IMG/VR virus record: IMGVR_UViG_3300022407_000924
Span: 1 to 24,723 of that record
Source: a virus
Lineage: Duplodnaviria > Caudoviricetes
DNA: 24,723 nt
Direction: 5' to 3' (one strand)
The translations under genes were made by a program, and so were the position numbers. Each line of letters opens with the position of its first letter. The first letter of the stretch is position 1. The notes beneath the pieces are model-generated. The model had not been told where the DNA came from. It worked only from the letters and a program-made list of their open reading frames with translations, and ran no database searches. Positions 5,799-24,235 of this stretch are shown here, one piece after another.

Positions 5799-6416
5799 AT
5801 GGCACAAACAAACTTCACACCCATATCGCTGTACCACAGCACAACTGCGGCGGCTGTGCCAACTTCTGGCAATCTTGTTGCCGGTGAGTTGGCGCTCAAC
5901 ACGCTTGATGAAAAGCTGTACTTTAAGAACTCCGCAGGTACCGTAAAACTGCTTGCCGCTAATGTCACTCCAGTAGCTAACGGCGGCACGGGTGTAGCAA
6001 ACAATGCGGCAAGCACACTGACTATTTCAGGGTCTTTTGCATCTAATTTTACTGTTTCTGGTGCGTATACATACACGTTTCCGGGGCAGACCTCTTCTTT
6101 GGGTTACCTTAACGTCCCTCAAACGGGGAGTGCAAAAACAGCAAGTTACCCTTTAGTGGTTGGCGATGTAGGTAAATTCGTTGTTCTTGGCACAAGCGGA
6201 ACAGTTGTGATTCCAGCCAGCGTGTTTGCTGCGGGGGATGTCATATCCATAGTAAATAACACTACAGCGGGTATTTCAAATACTAGCTCTGCTATAACCG
6301 CATACCTTGGCGGTACAAATACAATAGTAACTTCTTTTACATTAGCTAGTCGAGGGGTTTGCACAGTTTTATTTGTGACCGCCTCTGTTGTCTTTATTAC
6401 TGGAAATGTATCGTGA
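5799..6416 (+). CDS. Tail fibre/adapter protein with an Mtd_N-like N-terminal domain
   Basis: AAGGAA precedes the [26 protein letters not shown] resembles the GE(L/I)A..D.KL N-terminal trimer domain of tropism-determinant-type fibres; PVANGGTG motif; C-terminal beta-rich domain. Confidence 0.7.
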
Positions 6417-8065
6417 GTGGAATTATGCTCACAGTTGTCGGTGGCAGCTACGGTGCTGCCCCAGTTAATACTGTGGCCCCCGCAGTTACGGGAACAGCCT
6501 CTGTAGGCTTTACGCTTACAACTACAAATGGAACATGGGCAGGTTCACCAGCACCAACATTTACATATCAATGGTTTAGAAGCCCAAGCACTTCAATTGG
6601 TGGTGCAACTTCTTCATCTTATGTGGTGGTTATAGGTGATTTTGGGTTTGGTATTTTTTGTAGAGTTAAAGCCACTAATGTTATTGCACCATCTGGAGTT
6701 ACGGCTGATTCCAATACCACAGCAGCGGTGACATCAGTCCCGGGCGCACCTACTATTGGAACAGCTACAGCCACAGGAACTACTACCGCAACTGTTGCAT
6801 TTACCCAACCAGCAAGTGATGGTGGGTCTGCAATTACTTTTTACACTGCTACAAGTTCTCCCGATAGCGTTACAGGAACTTTAGCTCAAGCAGGGTCTGG
6901 AACAATTACAGTTTCTGGGTTGACCACTAATACTTTGTATGCATTTACTGTTACGGCTACCAATGCAGCTGGCACAAGTGCAGCAAGTGCGGCAAGTAAC
7001 AGCGTTACACCAGCGCAATTACAACTTTGGACTTGGGGACAAAATAACGCTGGGCAATTAGGACTAAACAACACAACTCAGTATTCATCGCCAAACCAAG
7101 TTGGTGTAACAGTTTGGCTTAATATTTCCGGGGGGCAATATAATACTTTAGCAACCAGAAGCAATGGCACTCTTTGGGCATGGGGTGATGGTTCTTTAGG
7201 TAAACTAGGTCTTGGCAACACTACTTATTATTCTTCTCCTAAACAAGTTGGTGCATTAACCGCATGGTTACACGTGGCAGCATCAAAGTATTTTTCGCTT
7301 GGAACTAAAACAGATGGAACTCTGTGGTCGTGGGGAAATAACAATGATGGTCAGTTAGGTTTAGGTAACACAACTGGATATTCATCTCCAAAACAAGTAA
7401 GTGGAACATTGTGGAGTAAAATTGCTAACGGTTTTAAACACTCTATAGCAACGCAAACAAACGGAACATTATGGTCTTGGGGTCGAAATGCTCAAGGACA
7501 ATTAGGTTTGGGAAACACAACAAGCTATTCAAGCCCAGTACAAATTGGTGCATTAACTAATTGGTCTGTAGTATCTGCTAAATTTAATCAATGTCTTGCT
7601 ATTAAAACAAATGGAACTCTTTGGGCTTGGGGTGTTAATGGTAATTCGCAACTTGGTTTAGGCAATTCTACAAACTACTCTTCTCCCGTTCAAGTCGGTG
7701 CTTTGACTGCATGGATTCAAGTTGCTTGTGGGTCGTATCATACTTTAGCCCTGAAAACCAACGGAACCTTATGGTCTTGGGGAAACAACGTTGGCGGTCA
7801 GTTAGGATTGGGAAACACAACTTCATATAACTCACCAATGCAAGTTGGAGCATTAACCAATTGGTATGATGTTTCTGGTGGGCTTAGGCACTCACTATCT
7901 ACTAAAACAGATGGCACATTGTGGTCTTGGGGCCGAAATGGTCAAGGTCAACTAGGCTTGGGTAACATTACCTATATGTCCTCCCCCAACCAAGTAGGCG
8001 CTTTAACAACTTGGATAGAAGTTTCGGCAGGATACCGTTTTTCTACCGCAACCAAAATTCCGTAA
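6413..8065 (+). CDS. Putative receptor-binding/adhesin protein: Ig-like + fibronectin type III + 7 RCC1 repeats
   Basis: GTG start in a GTGA overlap (MSGIML...). Ig-like [12 protein letters not shown]...TYQW...CRVKATN; FN3 VPGAPTIG...DGGSAIT.Y...GLT....[14 protein letters not shown]; seven LW[TAS]WG.N..GQLGLG blades. Confidence 0.85.
7024..8050 (+). repeat. Seven ~50-aa RCC1 repeats (beta-propeller)
   Basis: LWTWGQN, LWAWGDG, LWSWGNN, LWSWGRN, LWAWGVN, LWSWGNN, LWSWGRN, each followed by G.LGL.N.T..(S/N)SP.QV/I. Confidence 0.9.
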
Positions 8066-8069
8066 ACAC

Positions 8070-9839
8070 ATGAACAAAACACTTCACTTCCTCTCTGGTA
8101 TTCCACGCTCTGGCTCGACAGTCCTTGCGGCTATCCTTAACCAGAATCCAATGACTCATGTCTCAACAACGTCTGGTCTGGTTCATGCGCTGGATGGCTT
8201 GGCAAATACGTGGCACTCGGCTGGGTTGCTGAACGAGAATGACCCTGAGCGGAAGAAGTTAGCCCAAACAATGCGTGGCGCTATTGATGCGTTCTACGAA
8301 GACACAGAGGCTCCGGTCATCATTGACAAGTCCCGTGGCTGGCCTATTTCTCAGATCATGGCGGCTATGTCTCAAGTCCTCGGCCATAAGCCCAAAATCA
8401 TTGCTACGGTGCGCTCAGTGCCTGATTGTGCCGCTTCATTTATCCGTGTGGCAAAACCTGAGAACCTTGACAAGTTTATGTACTCCGGTCAGTTAATGGA
8501 TCACCTGAAGGCTGCTTACATCTCGCTCCAGAACGGCTACGAGTACGCCCCTGAGAACTTCTTGTTTGTTGAGTACGAAGACCTGCTGGCTGACCCTAAA
8601 GCGCAACTGGCCCGTATCCACGCCTTCCTTGAACTGCCTGACTTTTCCTACGACTTTGACAACATTGACGGCTCCACGGTAGCTGAGGATGACGAGAACC
8701 TGCACGGTCACGTAGGTATGCACGATGTCAAGCCCAAGCTGGAAGCACAGCACAAGCAAGACCCCAAAGACCTTCTCAAGTCCCATTACGGAAGTTTCTG
8801 CCAGCCTGAGTTTTGGCTAGAGCGCCCCCGCACCACCCCAGAGCTTCACGCTCTGGATTTGCAGCTTGCGGCGTCCACAACAGGTGACTTTGCTGAAGGC
8901 TGGCGCTTGGCCCAGCAACTGGAAGCTGAAGAGCCAAACAACCACCGTGCCGCTTACAACCGGGGTTGGTACTACCTGCGCCAAGGGCAGATTCAAAAGG
9001 GCTACAGCCTGATGGACAGGGGCCGTGTGGCTGGTGTCTTTGGCAACAAGCACCCCAACGTACCCACCCAGCAGTGGGACGGCAAGACCAAGGGCATCGT
9101 CCTGCTCAATCTTGAGGGTGGTCTGGGCGACCAGATTCACCAAGTGCGCTACGCCAAGTACATTGCGGCACGGGGCTGTAAGGTCATTGTGGCCTGCACA
9201 GGGTCACTCGCATCTCTGTTCGTTGATGTGGAGGGTGTCTCCTCAGTCATCCAACACGAAGCTGTATTCGGCATCTACCACGACTTTTGGGTGGCAGGTA
9301 TGTCGGCGGTAGTGCCACTTGGCTTTGAGTTGGCAGACATCTCTGGCGCTCCATACCTGACAAAGCCGACCACCATCAAAGGCCGCAAGAAACGCATTGG
9401 CCTGCGCTGGCAAGGGCAGAGTCAGTTTGAGCATGAGCACCACAAAAAGTTTCCCTACGAGTTGATGTTTACCGCCGTCAAGGACGCAGACGCTGAGTTC
9501 ATCAGTCTGCAACGGGATGAGGGTGCAGACGCCTGCCCAGCTTGGGTTAAACCCGTGCAGCTAAATAGCTGGGAAGACACCCGCGCTGCTGCGGCATCGT
9601 GCGACTTGGTGATTAGCTCCTGCACCAGCGTCAGCCACCTGTCAGCAGCTATGGGGGTTGAAACTTGGGTCATCACACCCGTCATGCCCTACTTCCTGTA
9701 CGCGCTTGATGGTGAAGCTACACCCTACTACGACAGCATAAAGCTAATGCGCCAAGAAGTATTTGGCGACTGGGCTGCTCCGTTTGATCGCATCAAAGAC
9801 CGTTTGGGCCAGAAACCCGCATTAAGGAGCGTTGCATGA
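8070..9839 (+). CDS. Sulfotransferase / TPR-like / GT9-like glycosyltransferase fusion (589 aa)
   Basis: Sulfotransferase motifs GIPRSGSTVL (5'-PSB loop), DKSR, VRSVPDCAAS (3'-PB) and YEDLLADP. Helical TPR-like EPNNHRAAYNRGWYYL. GT-B motifs EGGLGDQI, IGLRWQG and DLVISSCTSVSHLSAAMGVETWV. Confidence 0.85.
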   Translation: MNKTLHFLSGIPRSGSTVLAAILNQNPMTHVSTTSGLVHALDGLANTWHSAGLLNENDPERKKLAQTMRGAIDAFYEDTEAPVIIDKSRGWPISQIMAAMSQVLGHKPKIIATVRSVPDCAASFIRVAKPENLDKFMYSGQLMDHLKAAYISLQNGYEYAPENFLFVEYEDLLADPKAQLARIHAFLELPDFSYDFDNIDGSTVAEDDENLHGHVGMHDVKPKLEAQHKQDPKDLLKSHYGSFCQPEFWLERPRTTPELHALDLQLAASTTGDFAEGWRLAQQLEAEEPNNHRAAYNRGWYYLRQGQIQKGYSLMDRGRVAGVFGNKHPNVPTQQWDGKTKGIVLLNLEGGLGDQIHQVRYAKYIAARGCKVIVACTGSLASLFVDVEGVSSVIQHEAVFGIYHDFWVAGMSAVVPLGFELADISGAPYLTKPTTIKGRKKRIGLRWQGQSQFEHEHHKKFPYELMFTAVKDADAEFISLQRDEGADACPAWVKPVQLNSWEDTRAAAASCDLVISSCTSVSHLSAAMGVETWVITPVMPYFLYALDGEATPYYDSIKLMRQEVFGDWAAPFDRIKDRLGQKPALRSVA

Positions 9840-10228
9840 GCAATAGTTTATTTGTAAGAATTCAAAACAACGCAGTAACCGACTGCTGGGACACAGCGCC
9901 CCCTGCCGGGCAAGATGGCTGGAAATCAGCCATTGAGGTGAGGCCAGCTATCACAGCGCATCGTCAAGGCTACACCGCCCACACGTTTGACTTGTCCACT
10001 GACCCAGTGCAGATCGTGTACGGAACCTACGACATCCCAGTTGCAGACCGCAAGGTTGGCATGAAAGCCAATGCCTCGTTCAGCTTCCAGCAAGTTGTCC
10101 AAGAACAGATGCGTGATCCAGCAAGCTACGACCTCGCTGCCGTTGCCGCTGCACAAGCTGCCATCGCTCCCAAGGTTGCTGCTATTGAGGCCGCTACAAC
10201 GCATGACGAACTTGACGCGCTGATGTAA
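9836..10228 (+). CDS. Hypothetical protein, possibly tail fibre assembly/chaperone-like (130 aa)
   Basis: ATGA overlap. The C-terminal helical KVAAIEAATTHDEL pattern resembles tail-fibre assembly proteins. Confidence 0.5.
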   Translation: MSNSLFVRIQNNAVTDCWDTAPPAGQDGWKSAIEVRPAITAHRQGYTAHTFDLSTDPVQIVYGTYDIPVADRKVGMKANASFSFQQVVQEQMRDPASYDLAAVAAAQAAIAPKVAAIEAATTHDELDALM

Positions 10229-11070
10229 TGAAAAAAATCCTGATCATGGGCCTACCGGGCAGCGGCAAGACTTACCTTGCACAAGCCCTCAAAGCCTACC
10301 TTGAGAGCAACTCAAGCATCAAGAATATGCCAGCACACAAGATGCAGGACACGGTTCCAGCATCTTACAAGTGCAGCGTGGATTGGTTCAATGCTGACGA
10401 CATCCGCAAGCGGTTCAACGATTGGGATTTTAGCAAAGAGGGCCGCATCCGTCAGTCCCTGCGGATGGCTGAGTTTGCTCTCAAGTCCACTGGCGACTAT
10501 GTCATCTGCGACTTTGTGGCTCCGCTGGTGGAGATGCGGAACAACTTTAAGGCCGATTGGACTGTCTGGATGGACACCATTGACCAAGGACGCTTTGAAG
10601 ATACCAACAAGGCATTTATTCCGCCGAAGGAATATGACTTCCGTGTCACTGAGCAGAACGCCGAGAAGTGGGCTGAGTTCATTGGTCAGCACATCCTAGA
10701 CAGCCGCCGCCGCCCCGTGTTTGACTGGAAGCGGGAAACGGTGCAAATGCTGGGCCGCTGGCAACCGTGGCATCCGGGCCACAGGGCGTTGTTTGACCGG
10801 GCCATTGCCAAGACAGGGCAAGTGGTCATCCAAATCAGGGACTGCCAAGGCTGGAACGGCTCCAACCCATTTGCCGCAGAACAGGTGAAAGACCTGATCA
10901 AGCGTGACCTAGACCCCCTGTACCAAGGCCAGTACGAGATACAGCTTGTGCCCAATGTCACAAATATTACCTATGGTAGGGACGTAGGCTACAAGATTGA
11001 GCAGGAGGTGTTTGACGCTGCTACCCACGCCATCTCAGCAACTGAAATCCGAAAGAAGATGGGTGTGTGA
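10228..11070 (+). CDS. Adenylylsulfate (APS) kinase-like P-loop domain fused to a HIGH-superfamily nucleotidyltransferase
   Basis: GLPGSGKT P-loop, NADDIR, DFSKEGRIRQSLR, CDFVAPLVEMR and FIPP (CysC-like). C-terminal MLGRWQPWHPGH (HxGH), SNPF and ISATEIR. Confidence 0.8.
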   Translation: MKKILIMGLPGSGKTYLAQALKAYLESNSSIKNMPAHKMQDTVPASYKCSVDWFNADDIRKRFNDWDFSKEGRIRQSLRMAEFALKSTGDYVICDFVAPLVEMRNNFKADWTVWMDTIDQGRFEDTNKAFIPPKEYDFRVTEQNAEKWAEFIGQHILDSRRRPVFDWKRETVQMLGRWQPWHPGHRALFDRAIAKTGQVVIQIRDCQGWNGSNPFAAEQVKDLIKRDLDPLYQGQYEIQLVPNVTNITYGRDVGYKIEQEVFDAATHAISATEIRKKMGV

Positions 11071-17250: not shown

Positions 17251-17500
17251 TCCCGCTCAGATCTACGACCCGCGCTACAGCACGTTTGAATCGTGGGCAA
17301 GCCTCATGTGCGAGCTGTACGGGGCCCAGAATCTTCAGATTCCTGATGGCCAGACGGACTGGAGGCTGTGGGGCAATGGCTTAATTGCGATTGACGTTTT
17401 TGCAAACGAGGCTACGCCCCGCACGGAACAGTACGACAATTGGTTTGATTGGGCCGAGGCCATGGTGGCGGCGGTCAACCCAGCGACGCAAACAACATGA
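17240..17500 (+). CDS. Small phage hypothetical protein (86 aa, Trp-rich)
   Basis: Overlaps both neighbours; DPR...W...W..W...W..WA pattern. Confidence 0.7.
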   Translation: MALNPAQIYDPRYSTFESWASLMCELYGAQNLQIPDGQTDWRLWGNGLIAIDVFANEATPRTEQYDNWFDWAEAMVAAVNPATQTT

Positions 17501-18180
17501 ACTGGTGTGGCGACTCCCAATTCTTCACGCGGAACTGCAACGCCGTGAGCACGCTGTTTCCGGCGTGGGAGCGGGCGTTTGTGGCTGTGGCCAAGCATCA
17601 CCTGTTGCATGTCACGGACGCAGACCTAAAGCGCCGCATTCAAGAGTTTATCGGCGAAGAGCTGGCCCACGCCAGTGCCCATGATGCCTACAACGCCCGC
17701 GCCGGCATCACTGAGGTGGCCAACGCGGAGTACCGCAAGACCCGTCTGATCCACCGCCGCCCGGGCGCAAAGCTGTGGCTGGGCAGCATGGTGTCAATTG
17801 AGCACTTTGCAGCCTGCATGGGGCGCATGTACCTCGACCTGTACGGCAACAAGGTCGGGCGCGACCACAATTTGTTCGCGTGGCACTCTCGCGAAGAGAT
17901 TGGCCACAAGGACTTGGCCATGGACCTTTGGCGCAGTTTAGGCTACTCAGACGCTGATCTGCGGGCAATTGCAAGGCAAAATCAAGTTTATGTCATTAAA
18001 TTTATTGTGAGCCACACCTTTCAAGGTGTCAGTTTTCGGAGTTTCAAAGACTGGACTGACTTTGCGCACTGGGCGTGGCACATGACAACCAAGGTACTGG
18101 TGCCCATGCTCAAAATTTATTTACCCAACTTTCACCCCGGGCGGGTGGACGATCGACGCTACTTGGGAGTGGCCGCATGA
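17497..18180 (+). CDS. Predicted metal-dependent hydrolase (PF10118-like, ferritin-like di-metal fold)
   Basis: ATGA overlap at 17497. NAVSTLFPAWE, FIGEELAHASAHDAYN, EHFAA, WHSREEIGHK and C-terminal Y.PNFHP match the family pattern as recalled. Confidence 0.78.
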   Translation: MNWCGDSQFFTRNCNAVSTLFPAWERAFVAVAKHHLLHVTDADLKRRIQEFIGEELAHASAHDAYNARAGITEVANAEYRKTRLIHRRPGAKLWLGSMVSIEHFAACMGRMYLDLYGNKVGRDHNLFAWHSREEIGHKDLAMDLWRSLGYSDADLRAIARQNQVYVIKFIVSHTFQGVSFRSFKDWTDFAHWAWHMTTKVLVPMLKIYLPNFHPGRVDDRRYLGVAA

Positions 18181-18662
18181 CCGTTGCAGGCCTGCACCCA
18201 GTTAGCTCCAAGGAGCACATGCTGATCCCCACCGACATCTTTGCGGTGGCGGCGCATGAGGACAAAGAACGTTTGGAGGACATCAAACAGGCCGCCAAGA
18301 AGGCCGGCGTGTCACCTGAGCGCTTTGCCTACAGCATGATGATCCAAGAGTACAGCGACCCCAGACTGATCCGCATCCGGGCAGGCAACACCCTGTTTAC
18401 CATTGCGGCCTTTCCCAAAAGGGTTGGCTTTGTCCGGGGCTACAACGCAGACGTTGCCAAAATCTACATTGACAACATGATTGAGCTGTTTGAGGCTGGG
18501 CGCAAAATGGGTTTTGATTATTTGGTTGCCCACACCAGTAATGCGGTAGTGCAGGCTTTAAAGGTGGCGATCAAAAACATCAAGCAGGATGACTTTATCC
18601 CGCACTTTGATTCCCGCACAAAAATGTTCATGCTCAAGACCGGAAAGCCGAGGGCTGAGTAA
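18177..18662 (+). CDS. Hypothetical protein preceding the internal virion genes (161 aa)
   Basis: ATGA overlap at 18177 (alternative start 18219 after AAGGAG). Alpha/beta pattern; position resembles the T7 gp13-like slot (inference). Confidence 0.65.
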   Translation: MTVAGLHPVSSKEHMLIPTDIFAVAAHEDKERLEDIKQAAKKAGVSPERFAYSMMIQEYSDPRLIRIRAGNTLFTIAAFPKRVGFVRGYNADVAKIYIDNMIELFEAGRKMGFDYLVAHTSNAVVQALKVAIKNIKQDDFIPHFDSRTKMFMLKTGKPRAE

Positions 18663-21600
18663 TGGGTTACGTCAAAGAAAAAATAGGCTTTGACATTGCT
18701 GACCCGTTTACGTCGGTAGGCAAAATTATTGAAAAAGCCGCACAGACAATTGTCAATACTGTTGAAGCAATTTTAAAAGATCCGCTGCCAACTATTTTGC
18801 AAGTAGCCGGTTCCTATTTTGGTATACCGCCGTACGTAACATCCGCCGCCATTACTGCAATAAAAGGCGGCAGTATTGAGGACATAGCTAAGTCTGCGGC
18901 AGTATCTTATGCAACCCAAAAGTTTGGAGATTCAGATTTTGCCAAGGGTGTTTCTAATTTTGCAAAAACAACAGGGCAAGACTTTACGGCCGGCATGATG
19001 AAAACGTTTGACCTGCCTGCTGACATTGCCTTGTCTGTAGGCAAAGCAGCAACTGCTGGGTTAAATTCAAGTTTTACAGGCGGCTTCAATGCGCTTATGG
19101 CTGGAAAAAACATTGGCGAAGGCATGACGTCTGGGTTCACGTCCGGTGCAATTAATTCTGGCACAACCAGCTACTTTAACAGCCTCAAGGTTAATCCAAG
19201 CTGGGGAGTAGGTACCAAAACATTCGACTTGATTAAGGGAAGCGCCAGTGTAGCGTTGAACACCTTAGTAAGCGGCAACGGAAATATAGTGCAGGCCGTC
19301 GGCACTTATTTAGGGAACGCTGCTCTTGAAATGGGTCAGTCTGAGGTTACCAATCAATTTAAAACAAAATTTAACATTTATTCTAAAGCAGAGCGGGACG
19401 CCATTAATCAACAAGACGCCAGAAACGTAGTAGCAGATTTATATAATGATGGTTTAAGAGCCGCAGAAAAAATTCGTACTGATGCAACTACGTTGATGGC
19501 AGATTACGAAAACGGAATAAAAACAATTTACGAGCCCTATGTTGAAAAAGTAAATAAATTAAACACAGACGTAGCAGATTACAAAAAAGATTATGATTAT
19601 TATGTAAAAGAAGTAGAGAGGGCTAACGCTTATGTTCAACCAGAAACATACGGCGTTACCGGCGAAAATGCAGAAGGCCAAACATTGTATGGGTTTGTTA
19701 AAACTGGAGAAACTAAAGAACAAGTTATTGCTAAAGTAAAAGCACTAGAGCCTAGTTTGCAAGCTAAAGGCGAGGCAATAAACACGGATTATGCCGCCGT
19801 TACCGCAAGCTCCGCAGCAGTAGAGGGTTTAACAACATTAAAAACATCAACAGAAACAAAAATTGCTGAGTACGACACAGCAAGAGCAAATTTAGAAACA
19901 CCTGCTGGAGAGAATCTGGCCGCAAAATTAGCGGCAGAAGACAAAAAGTTAGAAACAGCATATGAAGTTTTAACTACGGCCAAAACAGATGCGGATACTG
20001 CTGCTGACAATTTTGATAAAGCTGTAGGAGCCGTAGCAATCAGAAACGTTGCAATTGATGCGCTCAATTCAGGCGCTATCACGGTCACAGGTGTAGAGGC
20101 TGATGGCTCGTATAAGTTGTCAAACAATACTTTCTTGAAGGACGGCAAGTTTTACCAAGACGGCAACCAGTTGTTTACCGAAGCCGGCGGCACCAGACAG
20201 AACGACCTAAATTTCACAGACAGCACGGGCAACAAGGTGGTGTACGACTCCAGTGCCGGCCGCACCATGTCAACCAGCGACGTTAAACAAGCCTTCTTGC
20301 GCGACTTTGGCTTTGACGTTGATGACACAACAGCGGCGGCTTTTGTTGGCAAGCCATACAACGCAGTAGATCACAAGGCGTATGAGAATGTTGTTGACAA
20401 TAAAATAACGACAGCTCATACCGCCTTGACTGGCAACACGTTAAGTGCTGAAGATTTGTCGTTGATTAAAAACTCAACCGGTTCAGCTATCAAAAATGAA
20501 GATGGCGCAGCAGTTATATTGACGGACAAGCAAGTAAACAATTTATTAGCTAAACAATTTATATTTGAAGGCGGTGATTTTAATACCAAACAGGATGCGG
20601 CAAGGGCCGCCAGATTGGCGGGGTATACGCAGTTTGAGTATGACAACAGCATCTACACAATGACCAGTGCTGGGCCAACTGAAAAAGACGTGTACCAAGC
20701 TGTTATTAACGATGCCCCAAATAAAAAAGAAGCCTTTGCACTTGCACGCAGTTTAATGGGCGCAGACAAAGTCTTTGATTACAAGGGCACATCTTTTACC
20801 ACCTCATATTATAAACCACCGGCTCAACCAGATCAACAAGTCCTTGGTGATGGAACCGCCAATACCAGCAGGGCGGGCACAAGGGTTGGCGCTCCTGTCA
20901 CAACAACTGAAGGACTGACTTATTTAACAGACCAAGAGAAATCGGTAAATCAAAGAATCTCAGAGGCATATGAAGGAACAACGTTATCAAAAATAGTTGG
21001 CACTACTGATGATGCGCTGCAAACTTTAATTTCCACAAAAGATATATTGTTGGGTCCAGCTAAAGGGGTTATCAGTACAGTAAAGTGGCTTGCTGATAGT
21101 TACTCAATTATTACTGGGGATATAGGCAATCCAGTATCTGAATCCATGCGCGGCTTGTTAAATAATTTAGATGAGTTAACAGGCGACAGAACAAAAGCTA
21201 CATTAAAAACCATGCAAGCCGTCATTGACGCAGCGGCAAAAGACGGGCAAGGCTCCGCAGCATGGGAGACAGCTAAACAACTAGTAACACATCCAGATAT
21301 AACAGTCGGCTTAGTTACACAGGCAATTAGTACGGTATTCCCTTCGCTTGCGGCTGCCGGGCCAATGATTGCGGCTGGCGTTCCAGTTGGTGTTGCAGCA
21401 TCTACTGCTATTGCTATCAACGCTCTATCGCACGGTGGTAGCGTAGCGCAAAGTGCTTATGAATATTTTGTAAAACAGGGAATGGAGGATCCCAGTCTTA
21501 GTATTGAGCAAGTACAAGCCTTAGCATTAACCGCAGGTCAAACAGCGCTTGTTCCTGCAACAGCCATTAGTGCAGTTATTAATTCGTTACCGCTTGCAAA

Positions 21601-24235
21601 ACCGTTTGAGAGGGCTTTACTTGGAAGTTCTGCTGGAGTAGGTAAAACGGCTTTGGTAGAAGCAATTCAAGAACCAATAGACGAAGTAACTGGCCAAGCT
21701 ATTTTTAACTACGTTACAAATCAAGACTTGGATAAAGGCACTGGTCAAGCCGCAGTTATTGGCAGCGTAGCTGGCGCTGGCGCGGGAGCCATAGCTGGTG
21801 CTTCACGTATTACACCAGCTCAAGCAACTCAAGTTTTACAGGAAGCTGGGATTCAAAATCCATCAGCTAGTCTAGTAACTTTAATCTCTAGTAATGAAAA
21901 TTTAGAGGTAGCCAAATCCGAAGCTGAGTCTTATATATTGGTTCAGGCTGCAAATGATCCATCAGTCTTAGTTGAACAAAATACAGATATTGCCGCCTTG
22001 CAAAGAGCTGGACTTACTGAAGCAGTCATAAGTAATATTACGGCTGGTGTTGCTGCAAATGACGCATCCACAAGCGGACAAGGCACTACCATATTGCCGG
22101 TGTCTGGAAATACTGCACTACAACCAATAGTTGAAGTTCAAGAGGAAAGCAACCTCGCCCCAGCAATAGTAGAGACTGTTGCACAGCCCAATACGGATGC
22201 TGCGAACGAATCAGATATCAAGGAAGACCAACCGTTGCCCGGAACGGTCACAAAGCCAGATGCTGGTTTTTCGTCCACCATTGCCCCTGATACCGTTGTC
22301 GGCATAGATGCAGATGGCAAGCCGGTAACAATGGCAGATATTTTGGATCTGCCAGAAGATGGTAAAAGAATAGAGCCAACCATTGATCCCAGCACAGTCA
22401 TTGGTGTCGATGAGGATGGTAAACCTGTAACGTGGGCTGACGTTGAACCCAATGCAATCATTCCGGAAATTGCCGACCCTGAGCTTAAAATTGCAACCGA
22501 TGCGGGCTTTCCTGACTTTGCCACCTACACCCGGTACGGTGGCAATTTGGCGGCATACAACGCAGACAAAAAAGCCGCAGAAAATTTGCAGATAGCTCAG
22601 GCGGCAGGGTTCCCGGACATCGCAAGCTACAGCCTATTTGGCGGCGATAAAGCCGCCTACGACAAAGCCAACAATGATGCTGCAAACATCCGGACAGCCA
22701 CAATCGCAGGCTTCCCTGACTATGCAACATTTGTTCAGTACAACGGAGATTATGCAGCGTATTCAACAGCAAAAATTGCGGAAGAAAAACAACAGATTGC
22801 AACCGCCGCCGGCTTTCCAGATCACGAGACTTACCTCCAATACAACGGTGACAAGGCAAGCTACGACGCCATCATTTCTGTGGCGGCAGGTGAGAAGCTG
22901 GCCACTGAGGCAGGTTTTCCCAATAACGCAAAGTACACGCAATACAACGGTAACCTTGCTGCTTACATTGCGGCAGAAGTCAACCCCGCAGTTACTCTAG
23001 TTACTGATGTAAATCCCGTCACTGAGGTGGCTCCAGTTACTGAAGTAAATCCAGTTACTGAAGTGGCTCCCGTTACTGAAGTAAATCCAGTTACTGAAGT
23101 GGCTCCAGTTACTGAAGTGGCTCCAGTTACTGAAGTGGCTCCAGTTACTGAAGTAAATCCCGTTACTGAAGTGGCTCCAGTCACCGAAGTGGCTCCAGTC
23201 ACCGAAGTGGCTCCAGTTACTGAGGTGGCTCCAGTTACTGAAGTAAATCCCGTTACTGAAGTGGCTCCAGTCACCGAAGTGGCTCCAGTTACTGAAGTAA
23301 ATCCCGTTACCGAAGTGGCTCCAGTTACTGAAGTGGCTCCAGTTACTGAAGTAAATCCCGTTACTGAAGTGGCTCCAGTCACCGAAGTGGCTCCAGCAGT
23401 AGACCCTGTTCCTGTAGTTACTCCAGTAGTAACACCTCCGGTAGTAACACCTCCGGTAGTAACACCTCCGGTAGTTAATCCACCGGTAGTTAATCCACCG
23501 GTGGTAAAACCGCCAGTGGTGAAGCCCCCGGTTGTTGTAGATCCACCGCCCAAACAGGGGGGACAAAAACCTGCAACATCAAGTGAACTGATAGACCCTT
23601 ACAAGCCCAGTTTTGCCGACATTGGTTTTAAAACAAAAGGCTTTGCAGAATTTGAAGGGCCTCTTGCAAAATATTTAAAAATGGTCTCTCTTGGGTCGTA
23701 CGCAGGAAATTTGCGAGAAATCCAACAAAATCAACAGGCAGCCCAAATGCAAGACGAACTTGACGCGCCACAGGAGCCCGGCTCCAACTACTTCACCTAT
23801 GGTCCGCAAAACGACATTGACCTGCCGGAGAACCCCGGCACGGAGATGCTGTACTCGAAGGCTGGAGGGCTTGCCACGCAATCATTTGCCGGTGGTGGTA
23901 CTACCCGGCACGGCAGGTACGCGGGAGGCGGCCTAGGGGTCATAGAGCACTCTGGCAAGGCCAGACTGGACTTCCGCACCGGCAATGCCGTGACGGGGCC
24001 CGGCGATGGCCAGTCCGACGACATCCCGGCCATGTTGGCTGACGGGGAGTTTGTGTTCCCTGCGGACGTGGTGGCGGCGCTTGGAAATGGCTCAACCAAG
24101 GCCGGGTCAGATAAACTCTACGACATGATGCATTCCATTCGGTCGTATCACCGGTCGGCCAAACCCAAAGACTTGCCGCCTCCAGCCAAAAAGTCACCGC
24201 TGGATTACATCAAAAATCGCAAAGTTAGGAGATAA
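18662..24235 (+). CDS. Large putative internal virion/ejection protein (1857 aa) with repeats and a C-terminal [20 protein letters not shown] domain
   Basis: TAATG coupling. Ala/Gly-rich helical segments, coiled coil and several repeat families. The C-terminal motif resembles the GPGT.TSDSIPA.LS.GEFV signature of tape-measure/ejection proteins. Confidence 0.75.
22481..22978 (+). repeat. Five 34-aa (102-nt) repeats IA..AGFPD.A.Y..Y.G(D/N).AAY
   Basis: AGFPDF (22502), AGFPDI (22604), AGFPDY, AGFPDH, AGFPNN. Confidence 0.9.
23000..23395 (+). repeat. In-frame 18-bp tandem repeat, 22 units encoding VTEV[A/N]P
   Basis: Alternating GTTACTGAAGTGGCTCCA / GTTACTGAAGTAAATCCC units. Confidence 0.95.
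23426..23530 (+). repeat. In-frame 15-bp tandem repeat, 7 units VV[T/N/K]PP
   Basis: VVTPP x3, VVNPP x2, VVKPP x2. Confidence 0.9.

Follow-up and report, generated by a model that had tools for sequence, protein, structure and literature searches.

The stretch of DNA analyzed here (the window) is a 24.7-kb virus record of 24,723 nucleotides that carries podovirus-like adaptor, tail, and endolysin genes. At positions 10228..11070, on the plus strand, an intact open reading frame (ORF) encodes a 280-aa, two-domain protein, an APS-kinase-like domain followed by a mini HxGH adenylyltransferase, which we predict to be a minimal PAPS synthase. Its start codon overlaps the stop of the upstream gene (TAATG), and its stop codon overlaps the start of the downstream gene (TGATG). 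That upstream gene is a 130-aa ORF (9836..10228, plus strand) which overlaps both of its neighbors and has no family match; similar ORFs occur in 40 of 168 viral loci. Two genes ahead of the fusion gene, 8070..9839 (plus strand) encodes a sulfotransferase domain (residues 7–190), a TPR region, and a C-terminal domain, making it the likely PAPS consumer. Pfam recognized the sulfotransferase domain (E 1.5e-16) and, weakly, the TPR. These two were all that could be confirmed in this gene: neither the C-terminal domain nor the GT9 domain claimed for this gene in the initial annotation had a Pfam or PDB match. The gene at 6413..8065 (plus strand), an fn3 and RCC1-repeat propeller sitting among tail-fiber-like genes, is a candidate target of sulfation. 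GC content is 42–46% across positions 6001–8000, compared with 51–60% in the first 6 kb, and this low-GC stretch covers the fn3-RCC1 gene and the gene preceding it, which suggests a swapped fiber module. Farther along, positions 17500–18180 encode a predicted metal-dependent hydrolase (PF10118, E 6.6e-36) amid virion genes, and 18662–24235 encode an 1857-aa protein with a long run of a six-residue repeat, Val-Thr-Glu-Val-x-Pro, near its end.

Residues 1–163 of the 280-aa protein (10228..10716, plus strand) form an APS-kinase-like P-loop domain according to Pfam, PDB profile, Foldseek, and alignment, in agreement with the CysC-like kinase initially annotated. The domain scored 30.3 bits against Pfam APS_kinase (PF01583; cut-off 21.1). 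A profile built from 26 homologs found APS kinases as its best PDB matches (2yvu, E 2.9e-16), far better than NadR, and the top Foldseek rows for the AlphaFold model of the whole protein (pLDDT 86) were also APS kinases. The P-loop GLPGSGKT occupies residues 8–15 (10249..10272, plus strand), and the family-invariant residues D57, R60, F68, R73, F96, and P99 align with D-x-x-R, F, R, and F-x-x-P of CysC (TIGR00455, PF01583). Where CysC has its RDPKGLY...FTG cap, the phage kinase has a shortened lid remnant at residues 121–133 (10588..10626, plus strand), a GR(F/Y)EDTN..F..P segment whose residue-to-residue match to the cap is not assignable; the absence of an RDPKGLY lid had been noted correctly. 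Arg, Lys, and Phe of the CysC cap are considered important (PMC13213808), and these residues do not map confidently onto the short lid. Against the apsK equivalog the phage kinase reached 20.5 bits, far under the 138.7 cut-off, and its best NCBIfam match was PRK05541 rather than apsK. The insert of about 24 residues described initially is real (residues 29–52; 10312..10383, plus strand) and lineage-specific. It is confined to close phage relatives and missing from SAR11, SAR86, and distant phage homologs, so we ruled out that it is functionally central.

The small domain spans residues 164–280 (117 aa; 10717..11067, plus strand) and is a mini HIGH-superfamily nucleotidyltransferase, predicted to act as an ATP sulfurylase. 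Its motifs, all on the plus strand, are a NadM-like GRWQPWHPGH containing HxGH (10753..10782), NPF (10864–10872), YGRDVGY (10972..10992), and ISATEIR (11032..11052); the first, second, and fourth are those originally reported, and the first lies at the position given for it. In YGRDVGY, which resembles the GRD loop of Sat, residues G250, R251, V253, G254, and Y255 are invariant and D252 is variable. In ISATEIR, R275 is invariant; the motif resembles SGTxxR of Sat, and a similar one occurs in NMNAT. Across 57 sequences, 15 columns were invariant, including GRxQPxHxGH, GRxVGY, and R275. The model of this domain (pLDDT 92) shows a minimal HIGH-superfamily fold. Residues 242–262 are predicted as extended in the monomer model, and one idea is that they are a candidate for pairing across a dimer.

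The small domain had no Pfam match, including to PF01747, and Foldseek returned nothing for it at E <= 0.001 in PDB or BFVD. Its closest solved sequences are NMN adenylyltransferases of 164–181 aa. NadM-type NMNATs (PDB 1f9a, 1ej2, 2qjt) and PPAT/CoaD share GRxQPxHxGH and NPF with it and are nearest in both sequence and fold. The phage domain is nevertheless about 50 residues shorter than NadM-type enzymes, the genes stand in sulfur-pathway rather than NAD settings, and the NMN adenylyltransferase family score was 27 bits against a cut-off of 127. The fold search gave PPAT (Z 10.2), NMNAT (Z 9.9), and Sat from Thermus (1v47; Z 8.6, rmsd 3.2, 114 residues aligned); these VIA fold rows are near ties, in which Sat is not separable from NMNAT or PPAT. 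TagD and HldC folds (Z 8.0 and 7.0) fall within the general superfamily band, with sequence E values of about 1. The structural comparison proposed at the outset did not give the substrate, and neither did sequence.

The motifs of Sat are given as HxxH, GRD, SGTxxR, QxRN, and GxxKxxD in PMC3779200. Like Sat (PF01747; Thermus 1v47, Allochromatium 4dnx), the small domain has the HIGH fold and HxxH, the latter as an invariant HxGH. It also has look-alikes of two other motifs, a GR(D)-like loop with invariant GR and variable D and an S-x-T-x-x-R motif (SATxxR); similar motifs occur in other HIGH enzymes. Unlike Sat, it has about 120 aa rather than 330–400, GRWQP stands in place of QxRN, and GxxKxxD is absent. 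An hhalign comparison with four Sat proteins gave a probability of 4.2% over 22 columns, with the HxxH helix alone aligning, and this profile-profile result ruled out descent from Sat. Because the match is confined to that helix and QxRN and GxxKxxD are absent, we do not place the small domain in the Sat family, and our claims about its function rest on gene context. The likeness to GRD was set aside as proof of Sat-type function because the Asp varies.

Among 8,000 scored candidates, 7,912 were homologs, and the whole protein matches PHROG 10255 (E 3.9e-45); the observation is therefore not chance. PHROG 10255 (e.g. Xylella phage Sano gp35) forms one protein family with it over residues 54–279, but is labeled "kinase" alone, leaving the second domain without an assigned function. 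We estimate that about 3,800 viral stretches carry the family. A pattern search of prokaryote genomes gave 509 matches, of which 464 were confirmed; the family also has 15 matching cultured-phage records, and a profile of the small domain gathered 112 representatives at E <= 1e-30. Automatic names of members are generic, e.g. "cytidyltransferase." A quick tree was built on 122 columns, and we draw no conclusions from it about where the family arose or which way it was transferred.

The two halves are found in one fused gene, in neighboring genes that overlap (SAR86, SAR11), and in reversed order; the small domain also stands alone. Of 150 proteins listed, 32 were chosen by length and scanned, and five of these (P0165, P0292, P0266, P0263, and P0212) join the small domain to a full-length, lidded CysC. 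Their kinases score between E 1e-45 and 6e-63 and have an RD-x-x-G-x-Y cap, and the small domain comes first in one and last in four. Two further proteins (P0152, P0172), in which the small domain adjoins fragments of chorismate or dehydroquinate synthase, were rejected as probable assembly chimeras, and a search for longer fusions found, among the 120 matches listed, near-identical kinase fusions and nothing else. Three viral fusion genes (L206:2839-4096, L207:2085-3342, L212:7001-8240) are about 400 bases longer than normal, possibly owing to an intein or intron. At L300:6261-7655, where a contig ends, a class III aminotransferase shares its reading frame with a truncated small domain. In Ralstonia phage RSL1 (L084:5995-12229), the lidless kinase has no small domain attached and is the first gene of a cluster that also holds glycosyltransferases, a nucleotidyltransferase, and a Sulfotransfer_2 gene.

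The initial annotation had drawn a parallel with animal PAPS synthases, and it holds in part. Human PAPSS1 (PDB 1x6v) and the Sat-APS kinase fusion of Aquifex (PDB 2gks) likewise join an APS kinase to a HIGH-superfamily adenylyltransferase, the phage kinase matches their kinases by profile and fold, and PAPSS has the same kinase-first order. The phage protein is not a shrunken PAPSS, however, given the Sat probability of 4% and the occurrence of its halves as separate genes and in reverse order. The animal-type layout, in which a PF01747 sulfurylase of about 400 aa comes after the APS kinase, was not found: the second domain has 117 aa, does not belong to PF01747, and lacks both QxRN and the PUA-like domain, and the whole protein has 280 aa and a shortened lid, compared with 546–630 aa for the known fusions.

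We sampled 201 mostly partial SAR11 genomes from the family of a Pelagibacteraceae-labeled carrier and found the small domain in 151, aprA in 146, and Sat in 10, nine of which also carry the small domain. The small domain and aprA occurred together in 137 genomes, the domain alone in 14, aprA alone in 9, and neither in 41, counts that ignore relatedness; without the five seed carriers and the unpublished genome G188, the table reads 136, 9, 9, and 41. At least 24 of the 137 double-positive genomes have the small-domain gene upstream of aprA and in the same orientation; in the remaining 113 it was not seen beside aprA. In 21 of the 24, the gap is 1,409–1,438 bases, and in the four such loci that we read it is filled by a 263-aa AprM-like gene, which had no Pfam match and was named by its position, and aprB. 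The stand-alone homologs in SAR11 are 51–56% identical to the small domain of the window. In one locus (L298, with the small-domain gene at 7068-7457), tauE follows aprA and xsc is nearby. The other SAR11 loci read mostly contained the split pair with the lidless kinase, adjoining a DddP-like gene.

Since sat stands directly upstream of aprMBA in Allochromatium, according to PMC3779200, the SAR11 gene ahead of aprM-like, aprB, and aprA occupies the sat slot of a sat-aprMBA operon. PMC5069961 reports that P. ubique has aprBA and is missing sat and cysDNCHIJ, which has left the fate of APS in SAR11 open; elsewhere, sat is reported from one of seven strains (PMC3448164), and the P. ubique Apr is placed in SOB lineage I (PMC2211403). 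A HIT-family gene and a CADD-family gene also lie near the SAR11 aprMBA region (L297:2142-2537, L298:6395-7057), and the HIT protein is a possible further route of APS disposal.

In a wider sample of Alphaproteobacteria, the small domain was found in 10 of 401 genomes, including the unpublished G496. Two of the ten led to one alphaproteobacterial order, which has it in an operon with a chelatase, a cysG-like methylase, CysI (707 bits against a cut-off of 457), CysH (248 against 154), DUF2061, and the lidless kinase, which takes the cysC slot. The operon is complete in eight of the nine genomes of this order, and in the ninth the contig stops inside the kinase. Neither CysD over its cut-off nor Sat was found in the seven genomes of the order that were searched (0.7–1.2 Mb, partial), and the weak CysD matches there fall on cysH. 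The operon itself holds every step except a recognized sulfurylase, and the small-domain gene stands inside it. DUF2061 (L335:7285-7548 in this operon, where the kinase and small-domain pair occupies L335:7555-8401) also lies near the fusion in many phage loci (e.g. L025:8815-9045), with 45 ORF matches at E <= 1e-3, duplicates included; it is absent from the module in the window.

Of the 20 genomes of a Marinoscillum-labeled family, 12 carried the small domain and none had CysD. In G036, G037, and G045, a cysQ-like gene, whose family was scored for G036 alone, comes after a canonical cysC, and a search of these three genomes for Sat found none. SAR86 has the kinase and small-domain pair without aprA, Sat, or CysD. 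Over 50 carrier genomes, Sat was present in 4 and CysD exceeded its cut-off in 3; in all, four carriers other than the Sat-positive SAR11 genomes have CysD over the cut-off. We also looked for mutual exclusion of the small domain with Sat or CysD and did not find it. The small-domain gene takes the place of sat or cysDN in sulfur operons of genomes in which neither was detected.

Sulfotransferases provide a further link. A profile made from the sulfotransferase domain of the window matched in 86 of the 168 viral loci; every match shares the strand of the fusion, and 43 of the 86 lie within 1 kb of it. As a control, we fetched 151 loci of sister phages by two structural genes: 3 had both genes, 1 had the fusion only, none had the sulfotransferase only, and 147 had neither. 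Within this set, 22 loci contain the whole interval (21 with neither gene, 1 with both). On these small numbers, the two genes come and go together in sister phages and behave as one accessory module. Among cellular copies, those in L132, L137, L139, L149, L158, and L338 adjoin sulfotransferases, the copy in L155 is in frame with one, and the copy in L136 is followed by CysQ; many others have unrelated neighbors, and many lie in glycan islands.

Four contexts (apr, the cys operon, CysC fusions, and sulfotransferase or CysQ neighbors) point to APS, and we therefore consider it quite probable that the 280-aa protein is a minimal PAPS synthase whose ATP sulfurylase is of a third type. The stripped-down nucleotidyltransferase first proposed for this gene thus gains support from both bacteria and phages. 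Both folds, the motif conservation, and the genomic settings are shown, and from them we infer its two reactions. The small domain would convert ATP and sulfate to APS and PPi by standard HIGH-family chemistry, and the fused kinase would convert APS to PAPS. The first of these steps is unfavorable, and the kinase, by removing APS as PAPS, and the host pyrophosphatase would pull it. PAPS would then feed the sulfotransferase two genes upstream, which, judging by its position, probably decorates a phage fiber or its glycan. In SAR11, the small domain would run in reverse after AprBA, turning APS and PPi into ATP and sulfate, whereas its role in the alphaproteobacterial order would be the entry step of assimilatory sulfate reduction. 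The small domain would be a third, non-orthologous ATP sulfurylase family besides Sat and CysDN.

Other readings share part of this evidence. It is unlikely, but conceivable, that the bacterial family is an ATP sulfurylase while some or all phage copies serve something other than their own sulfotransferase, either topping up host PAPS or APS or depleting APS, PAPS, or ATP in the course of infection. Such a use would suit the Sano/Salvo-type phages, where the fusion lies among early or replication genes (after an NADAR gene in Sano) and where three complete genomes with the fusion had no match to three sulfotransferase families. It would also suit the 43 viral loci that have no sulfotransferase domain nearby, out of 109 with 5 kb or more of upstream sequence. 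However, the window and its sister phages gain and lose the two genes together, phage DLP6 has a sulfotransferase gene at another place in its genome, and divergent sulfotransferases could escape detection. An APS hydrolase or an APS:phosphate adenylyltransferase, disposing of APS rather than making it, would be compatible with a position after AprBA and with the missing sulfate-binding QxRN motif of Sat. We regard this as very unlikely: the cysIH operons need an APS maker where CysD and Sat were not found, an APS-destroying gene is a poor fit for fusion to an APS kinase, and the HxGH and S-x-T-x-x-R motifs are kept.

The alternatives raised in the initial annotation, NAD or NDP-sugar metabolism, have been weakened, as they account for the motif and fail to account for the apr, cys, and CysC-fusion settings. 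A reversed NadR-like salvage enzyme, combining a riboside kinase with an NMN adenylyltransferase, would account for the NadM-like GRxQPxHxGH and NPF, for the NMNATs among the best PDB sequence matches, for the NADAR neighbor in Sano-like phages, and for SAR86 genome G050, in which NadD was not found. We nevertheless think it very unlikely. The SAR11 genomes have their own NadD (3 of 4, with CoaD in 4 of 4); G050 encodes a separate 367-aa protein with a C-terminal CTP_transf_like domain (L315:892-1992), which may be an NMN/NaMN adenylyltransferase; the kinase resembles APS kinases far more than NadR; the small domain is much shorter than the matched NMNATs (117 compared with 164–181 aa); and no NAD-pathway genes were seen adjoining its cellular copies in the loci examined. 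The pair might instead make a different 3'-phosphorylated nucleotide donor for surface glycans (an NDP-linked phosphoramidate, phosphonate, or sugar), like Campylobacter Cj1415–Cj1418, of which Cj1415 is CysC-like. According to PMC11800397, Cj1415–1418 make CDP-phosphoramidate 3'-phosphate, so kinase-nucleotidyltransferase sets that make other donors do exist, and the PRK05541 match, the many copies in glycan islands, and the "cytidyltransferase" names are in keeping with this. We still judge it quite unlikely, as it leaves the aprMBA and cysIH positions, the fusions to full-lid CysC, and the adjacency to CysQ unexplained.

A minimal PAPS synthase remains our preferred reading, and its wider form also seems probable to us. 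In that form, the NadM fold gave rise, separately from Sat, to a third ATP sulfurylase family. This family would be the "missing sat" of SAR11, allowing sulfite released from organosulfur compounds to yield ATP by substrate-level phosphorylation. It would also be the first step of sulfate assimilation in an alphaproteobacterial order that is streamlined, and phages in their thousands would have it in a 280-aa PAPS synthase with a lidless kinase. To our knowledge, Sat and CysDN are the sole ATP sulfurylases recognized in pathway annotation. Our literature search, which covered few subscription papers, found no title or abstract describing the family; the reaction is known, and an enzyme family of this kind for it is not described in the literature found. 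If the assignment is correct, a gene of about 120 residues, which three out of four of the searched SAR11 genomes carry, would close the APS gap of SAR11, and streamlined marine genomes would have to be judged anew for sulfate auxotrophy. It would also suggest that phage auxiliary genes labeled "cysC" are in many cases whole PAPS synthases that serve to sulfate phage parts. At under half the length of PAPSS1, the 280-aa protein is a possible compact tool for enzymatic sulfation.

One more gene recurs in these neighborhoods. In SAR11-type glycan islands, a pyruvate-kinase-barrel gene of 325–465 aa (L266:6838-8199, L275:5952-7346, L268:6104-7078, L276:5927-6904, L299:5034-6011) repeatedly lies beside Sat/CysC, the lidless kinase, or the fusion, together with sulfotransferases; perhaps it regenerates ATP for PAPS synthesis.
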